From: Escherichia phage vB_EcoM_VR7
Length of the DNA: 64,000 nucleotides
Sequence record: NC_014792.1
Direction: 5' to 3' (one strand)
Position 1 is the first letter of the stretch; the number at the start of each line of letters is the position of its first letter. Shown in pieces: positions 4,549-25,027 of this stretch. The position numbers were made by a program, and so were the translations under genes. The notes beneath the pieces were generated by a model, which had not been told where the DNA came from, did not search any database, and saw only the letters and a list, made by a program, of their open reading frames with translations.

Positions 4549-4814
4549 CAGTGCACCAATTGGGCAGCTTCTAAAACATCATCAAGCTTATCAAACTGGT
4601 CAACATAATCAATCCCACCAACTTCATCTTTGGCATACAACCAATACTGCTTGAATTCATATTCAATAATAAAGTGGTCGCCTTCAATCTGGAGGACACC
4701 AACATCATTAAATTGAACTGCGTAACCCGTAAAGCGGGTATCATTCAGGAGTTCTTCTTTCATAGTAATCATTTCCAGGTTTTTCTCATAATGAGAGAGT
4801 TTAATTTTAATCAT
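4548..4814 (-). CDS. Hypothetical protein
   Basis: 88-aa ORF, tiling. Confidence 0.5.
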   Translation of the reverse strand: MIKIKLSHYEKNLEMITMKEELLNDTRFTGYAVQFNDVGVLQIEGDHFIIEYEFKQYWLYAKDEVGGIDYVDQFDKLDDVLEAAQLVH

Positions 4815-5070
4815 TTAAGTAGTCCAGGAATTCGTCTAATGTCATGCCTTCTCCCCAAGCTTCCCAAGCATCGATTTTAGTGTACTTGGTTTTAGTGCGC
4901 ATAGGATAGATTCTGAATTCATATCCCATTGAAATGAAATAATTTAAAGTCCTTTGTAAATAGTAACCGTGACTAATTTTATGAGCTCGGCGAATTCCAT
5001 TAGCATACTTATGTTTGTAGGATACTATTACCGCAACACCTTCAGGTAATTCAATAGCAGGACACATCAT
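4807..5070 (-). CDS. Hypothetical protein
   Basis: 87-aa ORF, tiling. Confidence 0.5.
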   Translation of the reverse strand: MMCPAIELPEGVAVIVSYKHKYANGIRRAHKISHGYYLQRTLNYFISMGYEFRIYPMRTKTKYTKIDAWEAWGEGMTLDEFLDYLND

Positions 5071-15016: not shown

Positions 15017-15313
15017 TTATTTCTTACAACCAACATATTTTGGCATATGACAGAAAACAGAATCGGTAACTACTCGACCCTTTGCCCATGCTTCCTGTGC
15101 TTTACCGTGAGTAGTATTCACATAGCTGGATTTAATATTCTCAATACCTTGAGAATGTGATGCGTGTGCAGAACCATTAGAAGGACCTGCTGACTGACTT
15201 GAACTTTGACCGCCGGTGGAACCACCAGGGCCTGATGTGCCTTCAGTAGCCAGTACACCAAAAGACATAACAGCGGCCAACAGGCCTATAGCCACTTTTA
15301 ATTTTAATTTCAT
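15017..15313 (-). CDS. Secreted Gly/Ser-rich small protein
   Basis: 98 aa; signal-peptide-like MKLKLKVAIGLLAAVMSFGVLA then low-complexity G/S/Q region. Confidence 0.5.
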   Translation of the reverse strand: MKLKLKVAIGLLAAVMSFGVLATEGTSGPGGSTGGQSSSQSAGPSNGSAHASHSQGIENIKSSYVNTTHGKAQEAWAKGRVVTDSVFCHMPKYVGCKK

Positions 15314-19093: not shown

Positions 19094-19477
19094 TTACTCT
19101 AATGTTAACAGGTACTTGGTTTGAAAGAAAACGCCAACGATATCGTCCAGAGTCGATTGAATAGCCTTTGGTACAACTTTATAGACTCTTTCAGAGCTTT
19201 TAATCATTTCATCTAAAAACAAAATTGTATCTTTCGGCAAGTCCGAGGCGGACGGTAATGCAGCTTTGTATTGTTTCCCACTGTAACCTAACCATTGTTC
19301 ACTGAACTGGTCGAGTGGACCTTGGATTTCTGTGAAGTAGAAATCATAAGCTTTATGGCGGGCATAACTTTTGGTTTCAAGATGGGCAGATTTAAAATAA
19401 GCCAAAGAGACTAATAGCCACCCAATATATGAATCCACCTCAGACCCACGACCTGTTACGAAATCATCGAATTTCAT
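19094..19477 (-). CDS. Hypothetical protein
   Basis: 127-aa ORF. Confidence 0.45.
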   Translation of the reverse strand: MKFDDFVTGRGSEVDSYIGWLLVSLAYFKSAHLETKSYARHKAYDFYFTEIQGPLDQFSEQWLGYSGKQYKAALPSASDLPKDTILFLDEMIKSSERVYKVVPKAIQSTLDDIVGVFFQTKYLLTLE

Positions 19478-19808
19478 CTTCCAATTTTACCTTCATTAAT
19501 TTAGCGTATTCGACTGCAGCAGCCCGGCCATCAATTTGACATGTGATTTCATTTACACATTGACTCTTATTGTTCCATTCAGTTTTAATAAAAGCCCAAA
19601 ATTGTTCGGACTGCTCGACGCTGGGTTCTTTGAATTGCGAATAGATTTGCATCGCACTATCTGCGTACTGGGTAAATTTACCATCTGTAGCAGAGGACAG
19701 ATTTGGGCCTAAACAGCCCATTAGTAATAGACTTAGAGAAAGTCCTCGAATAAGGTCCATAAAGGACTCCTTATTGTTGGTCATGATTACGCTTTGCAGC
19801 CTTAACAT
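19464..19808 (-). CDS. Putative lipoprotein
   Basis: 114 aa; LSLSLLLMGCLG resembles signal peptide with lipobox. Confidence 0.4.
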   Translation of the reverse strand: MLRLQSVIMTNNKESFMDLIRGLSLSLLLMGCLGPNLSSATDGKFTQYADSAMQIYSQFKEPSVEQSEQFWAFIKTEWNNKSQCVNEITCQIDGRAAAVEYAKLMKVKLEDEIR

Positions 19809-19837
19809 AGCGGAATACTAGTTAGTAACTGTATTTA

Positions 19838-20110
19838 TTATCTTTTAAACTTGAAACAATATATTGCAAATAAATCAGAAAAATGTCTATCAACCCATAT
19901 TCTTTGCACTGGACTAGTAACAGTCAGCATATAATGTGCTTTTTGTAAATTTATTCCATTTTTATTCGGGCATTCTTTATTAACAGAATGGTACGTGCTT
20001 GCTACTATTTCAATTTCCCTTTCATATCTCTCGCTATCTGTTTGCGTGGGAATAAATGCAATTCCAGCAATAACAAAAATAGAGATATAAGTCCAAATCT
20101 TATATATCAT
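19838..20110 (-). CDS. Hypothetical membrane-anchored protein
   Basis: 90 aa; N-terminal hydrophobic helix. Confidence 0.4.
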   Translation of the reverse strand: MIYKIWTYISIFVIAGIAFIPTQTDSERYEREIEIVASTYHSVNKECPNKNGINLQKAHYMLTVTSPVQRIWVDRHFSDLFAIYCFKFKR

Positions 20111-20117
20111 AAGGACC

Positions 20118-20690
20118 TCAGCTTGTCAATTCGAGCCAATGTTTCCTGCATAAAGATACGTACGATTCATTCCCACCGACTAACACTTGCTCGCCGTCCT
20201 TTACAGCAGCACCGTCGATTACTCGAGCGGTCATGGTTGCTTTCCGGCCGCAATGGCAGACGCCCTTTAATTCAACCAGTTTATCCGAAATAGCCAGAAG
20301 TCTGGCTGAACCGGGAAATAACTGACCCCGAAAATCTGTTCTTAACCCGTAACACATAACGGGGATATTGTAATTATCAACCACTCGTGCTAACTGGTCA
20401 ATTTGCTCTGGTAACAAAAATTGAGCTTCATCAACCAGGACACAATGGATATCCTTTTGAGACTCGGCCCATTTATAGAATTCAAACAGGTTCATGTCGG
20501 CCGTTACCAGGTTTGCTTCCTGGCTAATACCAATACGTGATTTAATTTCAGATTCCGAGTCCCGATTATCAATAACAGGTTTTAGCAAAAGCACACTCAT
20601 TCCACGCTCTTTATAGGAATAAGCTGCAGTCAGCAATGAAGCTGTTTTGCCTGCATTCATTGCTGCGTAATGATAAATTAAACTCGCCAT
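20118..20690 (-). CDS. tk: Thymidine kinase
   Basis: 190 aa; P-loop MNAGKTASLL, CHCGRKAT zinc motif; matches remembered T4 Tk. Confidence 0.85.
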   Translation of the reverse strand: MASLIYHYAAMNAGKTASLLTAAYSYKERGMSVLLLKPVIDNRDSESEIKSRIGISQEANLVTADMNLFEFYKWAESQKDIHCVLVDEAQFLLPEQIDQLARVVDNYNIPVMCYGLRTDFRGQLFPGSARLLAISDKLVELKGVCHCGRKATMTARVIDGAAVKDGEQVLVGGNESYVSLCRKHWLELTS

Positions 20691-20699
20691 ATCACCTTC

Positions 20700-20903
20700 T
20701 TAAAGAGTATTCACATAAGCAATTAATTCGTTTTCTTTCTCATCAAACTGTTCAGCGATTTTTTCGTAATCTTCGGCGCTCACAGGACCCCATTCATCGT
20801 ATGATTGCATTCCAGAATTCTCTTCTAGAAGCTCATGGATAAGCTCAAACAATTTATCTTTTTGTTCTTTACTTAGGCTCATAACCATTGCACCTTTAAA
20901 CAA
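20700..20903 (-). CDS. Hypothetical protein
   Basis: 67-aa ORF. Confidence 0.4.
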   Translation of the reverse strand: MFKGAMVMSLSKEQKDKLFELIHELLEENSGMQSYDEWGPVSAEDYEKIAEQFDEKENELIAYVNTL

Positions 20904-21097
20904 TATTCATCTACGTGTTGGACACGTTTGTTTTTGTCAATAAAAGTATATTCAACATACTCGCCGATATACCACTTATCTACATTGTGCGGACTTTTTA
21001 TAGGACACTTGGTTGCCCGTGTTTCGGACCAGTGTCGAATAATTGTAGCTTTGTTTTTAGGGTCAAATGGGTGTGGATAATGTGCTTTCATAATCAA
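20879..21097 (-). CDS. Hypothetical protein
   Basis: 72-aa ORF. Confidence 0.4.
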   Translation of the reverse strand: MIMKAHYPHPFDPKNKATIIRHWSETRATKCPIKSPHNVDKWYIGEYVEYTFIDKNKRVQHVDEYCLKVQWL

Positions 21098-21542
21098 CTA
21101 CCATCAAATCAATGTCAGGAGTAAACATATCAATTAACCGGGAAACCTTATCCCAATCACCACCTGCAATACCACATCCAATCCTGGGAATATAAATCAC
21201 AGGCTTGAACAAAAGGGATTCTGCTTGTCGATTTAATTCTATCATACAATTTACTAAAGCGCCATAATCCAGATTTGGACCCGGTTCATACTGGGTATAA
21301 AGGTTATAGCACATACCAAATCCAGTTGGCTTATGTTTAAAAACGATAGACATATCACCGAGTTTTTCTCGGGAACCGTATTCAGTTGATGTTTTATCCA
21401 TTTCTAAAATTTTTGGGTAAGCCTTTGCCAGTTGGCCAGCAACGCCTGACCCCATTGTATGGAAACAATTACAGCCATGAGCTATGATGTTTCCTTCGAG
21501 AAAAAGGGCGACAATATCGCCCTTAATATAGTTAACAATCAT
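21063..21542 (-). CDS. Macro-domain protein (ADP-ribose binding/processing fold)
   Basis: 159 aa; IAHGCNCFHTMGSGVAGQLAKAYP and IPRIGCGIAGGDW resemble the two macro-domain signature segments. Confidence 0.65.
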   Translation of the reverse strand: MIVNYIKGDIVALFLEGNIIAHGCNCFHTMGSGVAGQLAKAYPKILEMDKTSTEYGSREKLGDMSIVFKHKPTGFGMCYNLYTQYEPGPNLDYGALVNCMIELNRQAESLLFKPVIYIPRIGCGIAGGDWDKVSRLIDMFTPDIDLMVVDYESTLSTPI

Positions 21543-21898
21543 TTAGAGTTCAATCCTCTGTTATAGGAATCGACTAACCTGTCAACCATACTGGTGCAGG
21601 CCGCTTTATATTTGGCACTCGACAGAATACAATCCATTTCAAATAGTTTCTTTTCATATTTGTTGGATAAAATACTCTTTTTCATAAGAGTGTGTTCAAC
21701 ATCATTTTGACCGTCTTTATATGCAGCAGTGAGTTTGGCACTGAACTGGATTACACAATCCACATTGCTTGATGCGCAATAATCTTTGGCCGTCCTCGTT
21801 GCATATTCTATGATGCTATTATTATCATCGCTCTGTACTGAAGCTATTCCTCCCGTGCTGAATACTAACCCTATGGCTAAAGTTATGACTCTTACCAT
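21539..21898 (-). CDS. Secreted hypothetical protein
   Basis: 119 aa; N-terminal signal-peptide-like MVRVITLAIGLVFSTGGIASV. Confidence 0.45.
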   Translation of the reverse strand: MVRVITLAIGLVFSTGGIASVQSDDNNSIIEYATRTAKDYCASSNVDCVIQFSAKLTAAYKDGQNDVEHTLMKKSILSNKYEKKLFEMDCILSSAKYKAACTSMVDRLVDSYNRGLNSK

Positions 21899-22441
21899 TT
21901 AATCCACCGTTTTTAATAGGCCTCGTGATTTTAAGTAGTTAGCTTTTTCTAGGACTTGCGAAGCATACGTATTTCCAGCTTTCACATTCCACCCTGCGTT
22001 ATATGATGATAGTGTTTTTCTTATGTCCCCCTTGTGGATGTTTAACCAGTATGAAAGCTCAATATAAGCCCAGCGTGCACTGTTCTCTCTCTTGCTTATC
22101 ATCTTGATTATTTCTTTATCTGTCATTGTCCACCCAACCTGTTTTACGCGCTCGCGCACGGTTGGAAGATAATTTTGGAATATACCATATGCATGATGCT
22201 TATCTTTATTTAATCCTGTATTAACACCAGCAGATGATTCCTGCCAGGTTAAACCAGCCATGATATATCCCAAACCATTATGTTGGTGCGGATTTTCTTT
22301 GTACTTACCATTTTTCTGGAACTGTTCTCCAAACGCATAAGCATATTGGAGGTTCTCCATTTGTTCATTACTGAAAGTAGGCTCTACGCTATGGGCAGAC
22401 ATACTAACTGTCAATAGTAAAGTGGCTATTACTTTTTTCAT
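21899..22441 (-). CDS. Secreted protein, possibly lytic-transglycosylase-like
   Basis: 180 aa; signal peptide MKKVIATLLLTVSMSAHS; TWQESSAG and AYGIFQ resemble SLT-domain motifs (weak). Confidence 0.45.
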   Translation of the reverse strand: MKKVIATLLLTVSMSAHSVEPTFSNEQMENLQYAYAFGEQFQKNGKYKENPHQHNGLGYIMAGLTWQESSAGVNTGLNKDKHHAYGIFQNYLPTVRERVKQVGWTMTDKEIIKMISKRENSARWAYIELSYWLNIHKGDIRKTLSSYNAGWNVKAGNTYASQVLEKANYLKSRGLLKTVD

Positions 22442-22451
22442 GAATTCCCCA

Positions 22452-22910
22452 TTAGATATAAATCACTTTTGTGCTAATTTTTCCTTCCAGACGATTAGAG
22501 TTAACAAACGCCATACGACAACACATGGTTGGAGACTTCCCAGGAAGAGCTGGGTTAACTGTCATTCCTAACCATAAGTTCTTGTCTGTGATTTCCAGAC
22601 GAAGTGGACGGTAGTTCACATTCGGGTCAATTTGTGCTTCAACTTCCGGGAGTGGTTTCATCTCCAGGAATTCAACAATTTCTTTTACATGTGGTGTGAT
22701 TTTTCCAAACAAGTCAAAAACATATTGTTCGTCAATTTCACGTTGGATTGCACGGTCCAACAGGTGTGGACTGTACTTAATGAAGAATGCTTCAAGGCCT
22801 GCTTCTTTACAAGCCTTGTTGATAGCATTATTAATTTTGAGGAACTCCGTTTCAAAAATACGACGAAGTTTATTGCGGCGAATGTAAACACTTGAATCGA
22901 TAGTAGTCAT
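22452..22910 (-). CDS. regB: Endoribonuclease RegB
   Basis: Track ORF trimmed to Met at 22910 (upstream part is translated promoter); MTTIDSSVYIRRNKLRRIFETEF...LLDRAIQREIDEQYVF matches remembered T4 RegB. Confidence 0.8.
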   Translation of the reverse strand: MTTIDSSVYIRRNKLRRIFETEFLKINNAINKACKEAGLEAFFIKYSPHLLDRAIQREIDEQYVFDLFGKITPHVKEIVEFLEMKPLPEVEAQIDPNVNYRPLRLEITDKNLWLGMTVNPALPGKSPTMCCRMAFVNSNRLEGKISTKVIYI

Positions 22911-22933
22911 GATTATCTCCTTTTGTTTGATGG

Positions 22934-22967
22934 GATAATCATAACTCATTTCAACCTGCTTGTACAC
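22934..22967 (-). promoter_or_regulatory. Early promoter-leader cassette upstream of regB
   Basis: Minus sense GTGTACAAGCAGGTTGAAATGAGTTATGATTATCCCATCAAACAAAAGGAG. Confidence 0.5.
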
Positions 22968-23314
22968 TATTCTTTAAAACGAATTAGCTTATTTAATGAC
23001 TGTGAGACTTCAGCACGAACAGCGTGTAAATTCTTAAGCTGTTCAAGGCGTTGCTCGTAGTAAGCAATTTCATCTTCTTCAAGACAGTCGTTTGAATCTT
23101 CTTTAAGATAGTTCCCGTAGTCCTGAAAGGCCTTACGAATAACTTCCTGGAAATCATCTAGACTTTGAATTTTTGGCTGTTTCGATGTGAATCCAAACGG
23201 ATTGGAATCATTTATGCGGCGATGAGAAGCGGTTGATAACTCATAACCAAAACCAGAATTAATCTGCGCCATTAGTATTTTTCCTCGGGTCGAAATACTG
23301 CACGACATGCCCAC
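22967..23314 (-). CDS. Hypothetical protein
   Basis: 115-aa ORF. Confidence 0.4.
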
Positions 23315-23535
23315 ATGCTGGCTTCTTTTAGATGTTGCTTAGCATACTTAAGAGCCTGCACTGCATCCATATCTTCTTTGGTTTGTTGCTCTGTTTCATT
23401 TTCTTTCAAGATATATGCTTCTTCAATCAGAGCATCAAACATCAATCCAAGACGAACTTCTGCATCTTTAATAGCGTTCACTTTACCGATTTTATCGTCG
23501 GTATGTGGCTTGTAACCTTTGATATCTTCAATCAT
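23272..23535 (-). CDS. Hypothetical protein
   Basis: 87-aa ORF. Confidence 0.4.
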
Positions 23536-23765
23536 TTCACTTCCTCGCCAGTTGCGATATCATATTCCACCAAACGAAGGCCGTCGGTCCAACCCTGAAC
23601 GGAGATATAGGTAGTTGGGTAAACCAGTTCTTTACCGTTCCATTGACCGCCGTCCCAGACTTCCAGAAAGTCTTGTTCACCTGGACCATTAAACCATTCA
23701 ACGAATCTTTTCAAGGCTGCATCAGAGCCTTCAATCGTCAGTTTAGACATATTTTTTCCAGTCAC
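23532..23765 (-). CDS. Hypothetical protein
   Basis: 77-aa ORF. Confidence 0.4.
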   Translation of the reverse strand: MTGKNMSKLTIEGSDAALKRFVEWFNGPGEQDFLEVWDGGQWNGKELVYPTTYISVQGWTDGLRLVEYDIATGEEVK

Positions 23766-24039
23766 TAATTAATCGCACATCCTGGTCATACGTCAGGAGG
23801 CTACGAGTTATAATACCCTTACATGGTCCAGAAATAAATTCCAGAGTAAAGTAAGGAACCAACTTCATCAAGCGAATACTCGGAGCAGTGCAACGAAATC
23901 TGGACCCAATAAAAGGTCCAGACAAAAACACATACTCAAAGAAATTTGCTTTATTAAAGATTTCAAAATTCTTTACGAAATCTTCAGACCTAACCTTTGG
24001 AATAAAATAGATTTGGTCAAAAAGCTCTTCATGAGTCAT
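23743..24039 (-). CDS. Hypothetical protein
   Basis: 98-aa ORF. Confidence 0.4.
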   Translation of the reverse strand: MTHEELFDQIYFIPKVRSEDFVKNFEIFNKANFFEYVFLSGPFIGSRFRCTAPSIRLMKLVPYFTLEFISGPCKGIITRSLLTYDQDVRLISDWKKYV

Positions 24040-24566
24040 TATTGCATTCCTATCACAAAGAATAACGGCAAAGGCTTATCACCTTGACACATAAATTTAT
24101 TCATCATTACCTGATAAGCTTCATAGAACTTATCCATTGCAGGGAGGCGAATAGGTTCTTCAATAATGATTAAAAGACGCGTAAAACGCAATCCACGGTA
24201 CTTATGGAAATTATCTTCATCAAGGAAACTGCGTACAGTATCATAGACAACGAATCCAGGTCGTTCAACTTGAAGATGTGGTTGTGCCTTAGAAACCCGT
24301 TTTATTACATCACAGATTTCTCGTGAGCGATGTGAAGAACTTGACATAACAATCACATCATTACCCTTGGAAACCCAATCAGCAGCGAATTGAGCAAGGG
24401 CACTTGTTTTACCCGTTTGACGACCACCATCAAGTCGAAGAGTACCAAACTCTTGCATTCTTGAAGCGGGTTCATACCAGGTGTATTGGTCTGAATCTAA
24501 GCGTTCAATGGCGCGTTCAGCGAAGGCGTGCATTAAGGTTAGATAAATTGGAGTTAAAAATTTCAT
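24039..24566 (-). CDS. Small P-loop (Walker A) protein
   Basis: 175 aa; GGRQTGKTSALAQF. Confidence 0.45.
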   Translation of the reverse strand: MKFLTPIYLTLMHAFAERAIERLDSDQYTWYEPASRMQEFGTLRLDGGRQTGKTSALAQFAADWVSKGNDVIVMSSSSHRSREICDVIKRVSKAQPHLQVERPGFVVYDTVRSFLDEDNFHKYRGLRFTRLLIIIEEPIRLPAMDKFYEAYQVMMNKFMCQGDKPLPLFFVIGMQ

Positions 24567-24727
24567 AGTTGTCTCTTAGTTGTAGGGCCATTCCTTGGCA
24601 CATTAATTCGTCCATGTATCCGAATGTAAACCCCTTACCGCACTCGGGCTCGACCTTATTACAGGTAGGGAAAGGTCCATCACTCAGAGGACACGACGTT
24701 CATGAGGAGAGGGTCGGTTTGCCTTTA

Positions 24728-25027
24728 TTAAAAAGAACCAGAGCCTTTAATTGTGTTCTGGCGACCTTTATTTTCGAATTCAGAATGGTCGATTTCGTAT
24801 GCTTGTGCTACGCCAAAGGCCTTTTTAACTTTAGCTAAAGAACCTTTAGATGTAACAATATTAAAAGTATTGCCTTTGGTAAAATCAACCAAATCCACTT
24901 GCACACCCTGTTTACCGAGGCTTGCTACAATAGCATCAACATATTGTTGGTCTAAATTGCCTTGAACCCCAATTTGAAATGCTTTAGGAACTTTGGCTTC
25001 TGTGATAAATTCTTGATAAGTTAACAT
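24728..25027 (-). CDS. Internal-protein-like (capsid-targeting-sequence-bearing) protein
   Basis: 99 aa; N-terminus MLTYQEFITE matches T4 IP capsid-targeting sequence. Confidence 0.55.
   Translation of the reverse strand: MLTYQEFITEAKVPKAFQIGVQGNLDQQYVDAIVASLGKQGVQVDLVDFTKGNTFNIVTSKGSLAKVKKAFGVAQAYEIDHSEFENKGRQNTIKGSGSF

Follow-up and report, generated by a model that had tools for sequence, protein, structure and literature searches.

Two adjacent genes in a 64,000-nucleotide stretch of the genome of Escherichia phage vB_EcoM_VR7 (NC_014792.1; the whole of this stretch is hereafter called the window) are the vs.1-vs gene pair of a T4-like phage, and on balance we consider that their products form a periplasmic pair, in which Vs.1 would be a soluble enzyme of the lytic-transglycosylase type and Vs an exported accessory in the same compartment. 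The parts of this proposal differ in strength: it is very likely that Vs.1 is an exported protein with the SLT fold and likely that the Vs domain is extracytoplasmic, whilst the idea that the two act together is put forward more tentatively. In the mechanism we envisage, both primary products would carry cleavable Sec signal peptides that take them into the infected cell's periplasm. The lysozyme-like GH23/SLT domain of Vs.1 would there use a single conserved acid, Glu68, to cut the bond between N-acetylmuramic acid and N-acetylglucosamine (MurNAc-GlcNAc) in murein, most likely through the non-hydrolytic reaction of a lytic transglycosylase, which would leave a 1,6-anhydroMurNAc end. Vs would become a ~11-kDa four-helix protein stapled by two disulfides, serving as an accessory of Vs.1 or working alongside it, and together the two would condition or remodel the cell wall during infection rather than bring about lysis.

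The identity of the pair follows from its close relatives. The surrounding 3.5 kb are 99.7% identical to Escherichia phage vB_EcoM_VR26 (Gaprivervirus, Tevenvirinae) and are matched by more than 600 T4-like phages, in which tk, vs and regB are annotated. In PHROGs, the open reading frame (ORF) of 119 amino acids (aa) belongs to phrog_1256, 'valyl tRNA synthetase modifier' (E 1.3e-32), and that of 180 aa to phrog_600, in the function unknown category (E 1.9e-67); the gene order of T4, tk.4-vs-vs.1-regB, is also that of the window. A preliminary description of this DNA had placed two adjacent ORFs of these sizes at 21539-22441, and both are found at exactly those coordinates on the minus strand. 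It had also set them downstream of the macro-domain gene, which is true only in plus-strand coordinates; along transcription the pair lies upstream of that gene, with the 180-aa ORF first. Neither the two genes and their names nor the likeness of vs.1 to SLT proteins is new, and the window holds another orthologous copy: vs.1 was reported in 2006 as 'marginally' SLT-like for six T4-like phages (PMC1524935), and 'SLT domain-containing protein' is its product name in some GenBank records.

The two predicted exported proteins

The Vs.1 precursor is probably an SLT/GH23-type muramidase, divergent but motif-complete, and its sequence points to a lytic transglycosylase. In the window, mature Vs.1 would have ~162 residues and a mass of 18.7 kDa with an isoelectric point (pI) of 9.4, the mature protein being basic family-wide (median pI 9.5), and the window and T4 proteins are 66% identical. 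TWQESSAG and AYGIFQ, which the preliminary description had picked out in the 180-aa ORF as weakly reminiscent of SLT catalytic motifs, can both be read directly from the sequence. The resemblance itself is borne out by family searches, structural comparison and profile alignment, but the word 'weakly' does not do it justice, as a third motif, SYNAG, is also present and invariant. Residues that are invariant in 72 Vs.1 sequences include W66, E68, S70, G86, Q89, N90, E128, W132, Y147, N148, G150 and Y159, and these correspond to the three family-1 signatures (E-S, G-L-M-Q and A-Y-N-x-G, as defined in Blackburn and Clarke's classification) together with a fourth tyrosine.

Against a profile built from the SLT domains of Escherichia coli Slt70, EmtA, MltC, MltD and MltF, hhalign aligned Vs.1 over 84 columns with an E-value of 0.0015 and with the three motifs in register. 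This supersedes a single-sequence alignment with Slt70, which was of low probability and had the motifs correctly aligned. The residue of the Slt70 precursor aligned with E68 is E505, which we take to be the catalytic Glu478 of the mature enzyme. The Pfam SLT family (PF01464) was matched by 70 of the 72 Vs.1 relatives at E<=0.1, with a best value of 1.3e-7, and 17 of 89 database homologues carry a precomputed match to it. The AlphaFold2 model of Vs.1 has a predicted local distance difference test (pLDDT) score of 88.3, and when it was compared with the PDB using Foldseek the top 21 matches were all GH23 proteins (g-type lysozymes, Pseudomonas aeruginosa Slt, MltD, a GH23 chitinase and Slt70), with probabilities of 0.87-1.0 and TM-scores of 0.39-0.53.

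Some results count the other way. The Pfam SLT score of the window protein itself, 14.7 bits, lies under the gathering threshold of 21.3; the Foldseek E-values were 0.02-0.4, none of them being 0.001 or lower; and sequence searches of the PDB with Vs.1, the family profile and two relatives returned no lytic transglycosylase. An NCBIfam search gave no meaningful match. As to the type of reaction, 27 diverse sequences show no conserved acidic residue (Asp or Glu) in the interval from E68 to G86, and this lack of a second conserved acid is a weak hint towards a transglycosylase rather than a goose-type lysozyme that acts by hydrolysis. Both the enzymatic activity of Vs.1 and its reaction type are thus what we infer from the sequence. 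A tblastn search of 50,697 phage records found proteins of this type in 2,082, with members in Straboviridae, Ackermannviridae and Ounavirinae, so that the predicted exported muramidases of the Vs.1 type are very widespread and many large virulent phages would possess an early periplasmic murein-cutting enzyme.

The preliminary description had noted signal-peptide-like starts on both ORFs, and here our own prediction, which combines a rule-based heuristic with conservation, agrees with it. Under this rule a sequence needs a net positive charge ahead of the core, nine consecutive residues whose Kyte-Doolittle hydrophobicity reaches at least 1.8-2.0, and small residues at positions -3 and -1. 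Vs.1 begins with MKKVIATLLLTVSMSAHS, followed by VEPT, and Vs with MVRVITLAIGLVFSTGGIAS, followed by VQSDD; the T4 counterparts begin with MRKALLAGLLAISMMAHS ahead of SE (Vs.1) and MTKILVLCIGLISFSASA ahead of SADTS (Vs). In the window, both N-termini comprise a basic n-region, an uncharged hydrophobic core of 13-17 residues and small residues at -3/-1 (AHS before VE in Vs.1; IAS before VQ, or GIA before SV, in Vs). Both proteins were also judged by this heuristic against the general plan of a type I Sec signal peptide, which adds a core length of 7-15 residues and a polar start of the mature protein, and both agree with it. Among Vs.1 homologues the rule selects 69 of 72, and among close Vs homologues 26 of 28, the failures including truncated gene calls, and a signal peptide is also present in all 20 divergent Vs homologues, with CC31-like phages carrying a lipobox (LSGC) instead. 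For comparison, only five of the 107 gene-like ORFs in the window are selected, and the adjacent vs.1 and vs are two of these five.

The way in which these segments vary is also informative. Pairwise identity among Vs.1 homologues is 35% in the N-terminal segment vs 60% in the rest of the protein, and among Vs homologues 47% vs 65%, whilst pLDDT is ~50-57 across residues 1-20 of Vs.1 and below 50 at residues 1-4, 10-12 and 16-23 of Vs. Cleaved signal peptides commonly show this combination of low pLDDT and an N-terminus that drifts but retains its character, and we predict on this basis that both proteins are exported and cleaved. In Enterobacter phage CC31 and its like, Vs starts with a lipoprotein signal, MKKLFVLLVVFALSGC, in place of the plain signal peptide; this argues for export, since a lipobox would be meaningless on a cytoplasmic protein. 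Vs also has a basic residue ahead of the hydrophobic core and an acidic stretch behind it, a distribution that predicts an N-in/C-out topology and therefore a domain outside the cytoplasm. At the CC31-like loci (L032-L034 and L051, at ~4549-4875 in each), the LSGC lipobox is accompanied by Lys at +2 and by the four conserved cysteines.

Mature Vs of the window would be a protein of ~99 residues and 11.1 kDa, and the window and T4 proteins share 45% identity. All Vs homologues carry a precomputed assignment to Pfam family PF26829. The AlphaFold2 model is a four-helix bundle (pLDDT 78.4) for which we found no informative structural relative, no fold or sequence relationship to the known muramidase inhibitors Spackle, Ivy, PliC/MliC, PliG and LprI, and a single chance match only when its sequence was searched against the PDB. 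Four cysteines, C41, C48, C90 and C101, are invariant in 28 Vs sequences; in the divergent set C41, C48 and C101 are invariant and the third cysteine occurs in every sequence, offset by the aligner. In the model they lie at the helix1/helix2 and helix3/helix4 turns, which suggests that they are paired into two stapling disulfides. A profile search of 1.84 billion representative sequences recovered eight proteins and a broader profile 74, all of the PF26829 phage family; no bacterial relatives appeared in these profile searches, and the relatives are confined to T4-like phages. One match, a protein of 3,694 aa (P0118), was rejected as a low-complexity artefact that also matches unrelated Pfam families. 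Vs copies of only ~20-30% identity, from Acinetobacter, Proteus, Klebsiella, Vibrio (KVP40-like) and other phages, all have the signal peptide and the cysteines. Most phages have a Vs of neutral to acidic pI (median 6.5), whereas T4 Vs is basic (8.9).

Gene linkage, fitness and the synthetase annotation

The case for a functional pair draws on gene linkage, which we assessed at 70 viral loci carrying vs.1. A Vs-family ORF starts between -7 and +8 nt from the vs.1 stop in 55 of them; one further locus has a frameshifted Vs copy and eight, which are KVP40-like, have Vs 0.5-1.2 kb downstream on the same strand, giving a Vs-family gene after vs.1 in 64 of the 70 overall. At Acinetobacter-phage loci vs.1 and vs occur together even though no regB, tk.4 or tk lies inside a distance of 4 kb, which agrees with the genome paper on phage ZZ1 (PMC4177764). 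Vs was never found on its own, all 27 loci recovered in the Vs search also holding vs.1. The arrangement of the junction would in addition allow vs.1 and vs to be translationally coupled. Two loci show damage to vs beside an intact vs.1: in L006 (4541-4798) an in-frame internal deletion removes the first cysteine pair and leaves an 85-aa Vs, to which an identical database protein is named from phage vB_EcoM_005, and in L036 a frameshift splits vs in two (4549-4746 and a second ORF from 142 nt past the vs.1 stop).

Other observations weigh against a special relationship between the two proteins. Six of the 70 vs.1 loci are missing a Vs-family ORF, and Vs.1 homologues in Ackermannviridae and Ounavirinae have no Vs-like neighbour; Vs.1 is thus present without Vs, and the enzyme therefore does not need it. 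The adjacency of regB and vs.1 is nearly as conserved as that of vs.1 and vs, T4-like genomes being syntenic in general, and a mirror-tree comparison showed no special co-evolution of Vs.1 with Vs (r 0.73, vs 0.85 for Vs.1 with RegB). The loci without a detectable Vs-family ORF within 4 kb are L055, L057, L059 and L070, which are Aeromonas-phage-like, and L071 and L072, jumbo contigs of ~310 kb in which a 25%-identical Vs.1 relative lies near a tk.4-like macro gene.

These counterpoints favour the alternative that survives best, in which the existing annotation is right and the pairing incidental. Vs.1 would then be a lone exported muramidase and Vs a cytoplasmic modifier of valyl-tRNA synthetase, acting before or instead of export, for example through an inefficient signal peptide or an active precursor, and the adjacency of the genes would reflect T4-like synteny. 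We regard this as unlikely, and as the most serious of the competing explanations. As relayed in PMC8076793, classical biochemistry described T4 Vs as a factor that binds the host valyl-tRNA synthetase and alters its properties (Muller & Marchin 1975/1977), and the T4 record likewise annotates Vs as a valyl-tRNA synthetase modifier. Recombinant full-length T4 Vs with an N-terminal His tag went into inclusion bodies (PMC8076793), an insolubility that would be expected from a blocked signal peptide and unformed disulfides and that we take as weak evidence for export. By computation, the T4 precursor has a mass of 13.1 kDa and the predicted mature protein 11.2 kDa. In the work of the 1970s the synthetase-modifying factor was reportedly ~10 kDa, to which the mature mass comes nearer than that of the precursor, a point against a purely cytoplasmic Vs. 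On the other hand, vs mutants are said to have been selected on a host with a temperature-sensitive valS, which argues for an intracellular action.

Binding to the synthetase in vivo needs a cytoplasmic location, and prediction from the signal peptide or lipobox, the cysteines and the charge distribution does not support one. The signal peptide is universally retained, with its lipobox variant in CC31-like phages, the four cysteines are invariant, the acidic flank after the core predicts the N-in/C-out topology, and vs.1 and vs stay linked where their flanks are rearranged. The literature we searched, which did not extend to the first papers on vs or to the 2003 review of the T4 genome, makes no mention of a signal peptide on Vs. 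Between the predicted export and a cytoplasmic role there is a real contradiction, which appears to have gone unremarked in that literature. The full claim, that Vs is not, or not only, cytoplasmic and is instead a periplasmic protein (in CC31-like phages, a lipoprotein) that is exported by Sec, bonded by disulfides and works with Vs.1 on the wall, is one that we advance as a doubtful but defensible possibility. If it were correct, the association with the synthetase would have to come from a mis-assigned ORF, from binding after cell breakage or from a second function of the precursor.

Published T4 data bear on both explanations. The preliminary description had assumed early expression, and this holds for the T4 orthologues at the level of RNA: vs and vs.1 are early transcripts and both proteins have been detected, with their accumulation falling in the 'middle' class (PMC9697503 supplement). 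In a transposon study (the HIDEN-SEQ preprint) both genes proved non-essential, whereas the endolysin gene e was almost free of insertions, and vs was the strongest T4 gene conditionally needed in M9 glucose, a result confirmed with a clean deletion. Insertion counts in LB were 26.6 for vs and 22.6 for vs.1, compared with 290 for tk.4, 179 for regB and 652 for vs.3; in M9 they were 5.0 for vs (log2 fold change -2.19, adjusted p 0) and 11.9 for vs.1 (log2 fold change -0.87, p 0.0055, adjusted p 0.155; HIDEN-SEQ Data S8). With counts lower than those of their neighbours, vs and vs.1 therefore share a fitness signature that the neighbours lack. We also note that even in LB insertions in the two genes are about tenfold rarer than in neighbouring non-essential genes (HIDEN-SEQ Extended Data Table 6 and Data S8), and that the text of the preprint is silent both on this LB depletion and on the partial depletion of vs.1 in M9.

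These fitness data need careful interpretation. The depletion of vs.1 insertions may reflect polarity on vs, and the minimal-medium defect of vs fits a role in translation at least as well as one at the envelope; being the strongest M9-specific fitness gene would suit a protein concerned with aminoacylation. The pattern as such does not discriminate between envelope and translation. If Vs.1 does act on the wall, candidate roles are a general loosening of the wall, helping cells that grow slowly and are more cross-linked to grow or to lyse, or protection from wall events. Peptidoglycan remodelling at injection, which the preliminary description had raised beside superinfection exclusion and lysis timing, is unlikely, because the two proteins are made only after infection and then exported.

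A second explanation keeps Vs in the periplasm and makes it a dedicated inhibitor or immunity protein of Vs.1, which would restrain the transglycosylase until lysis in the way that T4 Spackle inhibits the gp5 tail lysozyme, with further parallels in the bacterial proteins Ivy, PliC and PliG. In its favour, vs.1 and vs are closely linked and seem to be coupled in translation, a periplasmic location is predicted for the two products alike, Vs does not occur without Vs.1, and the median pI is 6.5 for Vs whereas it is 9.5 for Vs.1; Spackle, too, is a small helical, disulfide-bonded early protein with a signal peptide (PMC7677548). Loss of the enzyme, with loss of the inhibitor through polarity, should on this account be neutral, whereas vs.1 insertions are depleted; several lineages have Vs.1 without Vs, and T4 Vs itself is basic. 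We consider this explanation improbable, and more so than the one in which the annotation is correct.

That Vs.1 belongs to the lysis machinery as an additional signal-anchor-release (SAR) endolysin, or is a virion enzyme used at entry, seems to us very improbable despite its muramidase fold and a homologue 1.2 kb from spanin genes in the Ounavirinae phage Maleficent, given that its core of ~13 residues (VIATLLLTVSMSA) followed by a cleavage motif (AHS before VE) is that of a cleavable signal and not of an uncleaved, weakly hydrophobic ~20-residue anchor rich in Gly/Ala/Ser, that T4 vs.1 is transcribed early and is non-essential where e tolerates almost no insertions, and that a Sec-exported protein cannot enter virions assembled in the cytoplasm.

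We therefore return to the periplasmic pair as the preferred, though not the only, account of vs.1 and vs, and its consequences would lie mainly with Vs. The vs gene has been a curiosity for ~50 years, and in its sequences the Vs family shows all the hallmarks of export. If Vs is indeed exported, then the minimal-medium fitness effect of vs would point to the cell envelope and not to translation, and a fifty-year-old annotation that has been copied into thousands of phage genomes would need revisiting. If Vs is cytoplasmic, the vs.1-vs pair is an ordinary one.

Locus organisation and neighbouring genes

Read along transcription, regB comes first and is followed by vs.1 (180 aa), vs (119 aa), the macro gene (tk.4), two small ORFs and tk; the regB homologue ends 10 nt ahead of vs.1. 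This tightly packed same-strand run from regB to tk.4 is consistent with co-transcription. A scan of positions 19400-25000 for promoters and terminators gave 17 matches vs 15.5 expected, which is the chance level, and supplied no operon boundaries. The T4 orthologue of the macro-domain gene, tk.4, has been named AdfM, an anti-DarTG2 factor, in a 2025 preprint (10.1101/2025.11.20.689424). The coordinates of the pair, its junctions and its motifs are collected in the table.

Table. Positions in the window of the vs.1-vs pair, its predicted features and the adjoining macro-domain gene
Feature	Position	Strand	Basis
vs.1 orthologue, ORF of 180 aa	21899..22441	-	window ORF list
vs orthologue, ORF of 119 aa	21539..21898	-	window ORF list
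vs.1/vs junction, TAA stop followed at once by ATG (TAAATG)	21896..21901	-	sequence reading
vs/tk.4 junction, ATGA overlap of the vs stop with the start of the macro-domain gene	21539..21542	-	sequence reading
Vs.1 predicted Sec signal peptide, MKKVIATLLLTVSMSAHS, cleavage after AHS18	22388..22441	-	heuristic, low pLDDT, conservation
Vs.1 motif I, TWQESSAG, residues 65-72; predicted catalytic Glu68 (codon 22238-22240), then Ser	22226..22249	-	
Vs.1 motif II, AYGIFQ, residues 84-89; counterpart of G-L-M-Q	22175..22192	-	aligns to Slt70 GLMQ
Vs.1 motif III, SYNAG; counterpart of A-Y-N-A-G	21992..22006	-	aligns to Slt70 AAYNAG
Vs predicted Sec signal peptide, MVRVITLAIGLVFSTGGIAS, cleavage after residue 19 or 20	21839..21898	-	heuristic, low pLDDT, conservation
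Vs four conserved cysteines, C41 (21776-21778), C48 (21755-21757), C90 (21629-21631), C101 (21596-21598)	21596..21778	-	
Macro-domain gene, T4 tk.4 orthologue	21063-21542	-	Pfam Macro E 1.5e-8

Several envelope-directed early genes are grouped within 3 kb of the pair. A homologue of the lysis-inhibition gene rI (phrog_1246) lies at 19464-19808 on the minus strand, and adjoining it on the same strand, at 19838-20110, is an ORF of 90 aa (phrog_6298, unknown function) whose N-terminus contains a hydrophobic segment. Elsewhere in the window, a 98-aa ORF at 15017-15313 on the minus strand, which is another of the five ORFs selected by the signal-peptide rule, has the signal peptide MKLKLKVAIGLLAAVMSFGVLA followed by TEG and a mature protein that starts with a Gly/Ser-rich segment (phrog_2243, unknown function).

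Comparison with known systems

The closest comparison is with T4 itself, whose vs.1 (T4p112, UniProt P13311) and vs (T4p111, P13310) are direct orthologues with the same order, signal peptides, motifs and four cysteines; the T4 genes overlap by 8 nt where those of the window abut, and there is otherwise no difference. Beyond T4, Vs.1 resembles the family-1 lytic transglycosylases (Slt70, EmtA/MltE, MltC, MltD and MltF) in its helical lysozyme-like fold, in its Glu-Ser and in having G-x-x-Q and A/S-Y-N-x-G in the same order and register, all of these proteins being periplasmic (by prediction in the case of Vs.1). It is unlike the E. coli enzymes in being very divergent, in consisting of a bare 160-residue domain with a conserved N-terminal helix of its own (FSxxQxDNLxYAYxFGEQ), in being predicted to be soluble and not lipid-anchored, and in being made early from the genome of a virulent phage.

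In build, Vs.1 is similar to the specialised lytic transglycosylases of transport systems, such as VirB1, P19 of plasmid R1, IpgF, IagB and EtgA, which comprise a signal peptide and a single SLT domain of ~150-200 residues and which open murein locally without cell lysis. A tblastn search of 72,556 plasmids with Vs.1 returned no match, so there is no close relationship between Vs.1 and these enzymes, and we know of no envelope-spanning apparatus in T4-infected cells that requires an enzyme like Vs.1.

Vs.1-like proteins are also found outside the T4 family. Vi01_097c of Salmonella phage Vi01 (Ackermannviridae) and gp161 of Citrobacter phage Maleficent (Ounavirinae) are 31-35% identical to Vs.1 and keep the signal peptide and the three motifs, as WRESRAG and LQESQLG, GAFQN and GVFQN, and SYNAG. 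They differ in having 3-4 cysteines of their own and no Vs-like neighbour, and their genes sit in another context, near gp46/nrdA.1 or, in Maleficent, near rIIB/pseT. In our locus set the two homologues are at 1956-2573 (L106, Vi01) and 1267-1815 (L107, Maleficent), the latter lying between rIIB and pseT, near the spanin genes already mentioned.

For Vs, the nearest parallel in character is T4 Spackle (sp, gene 61.3), which is likewise an early protein forming a small helical bundle with disulfides and bearing a signal for the periplasm, one that is cleaved in Spackle, and which acts on a muramidase in that compartment (PMC7677548).

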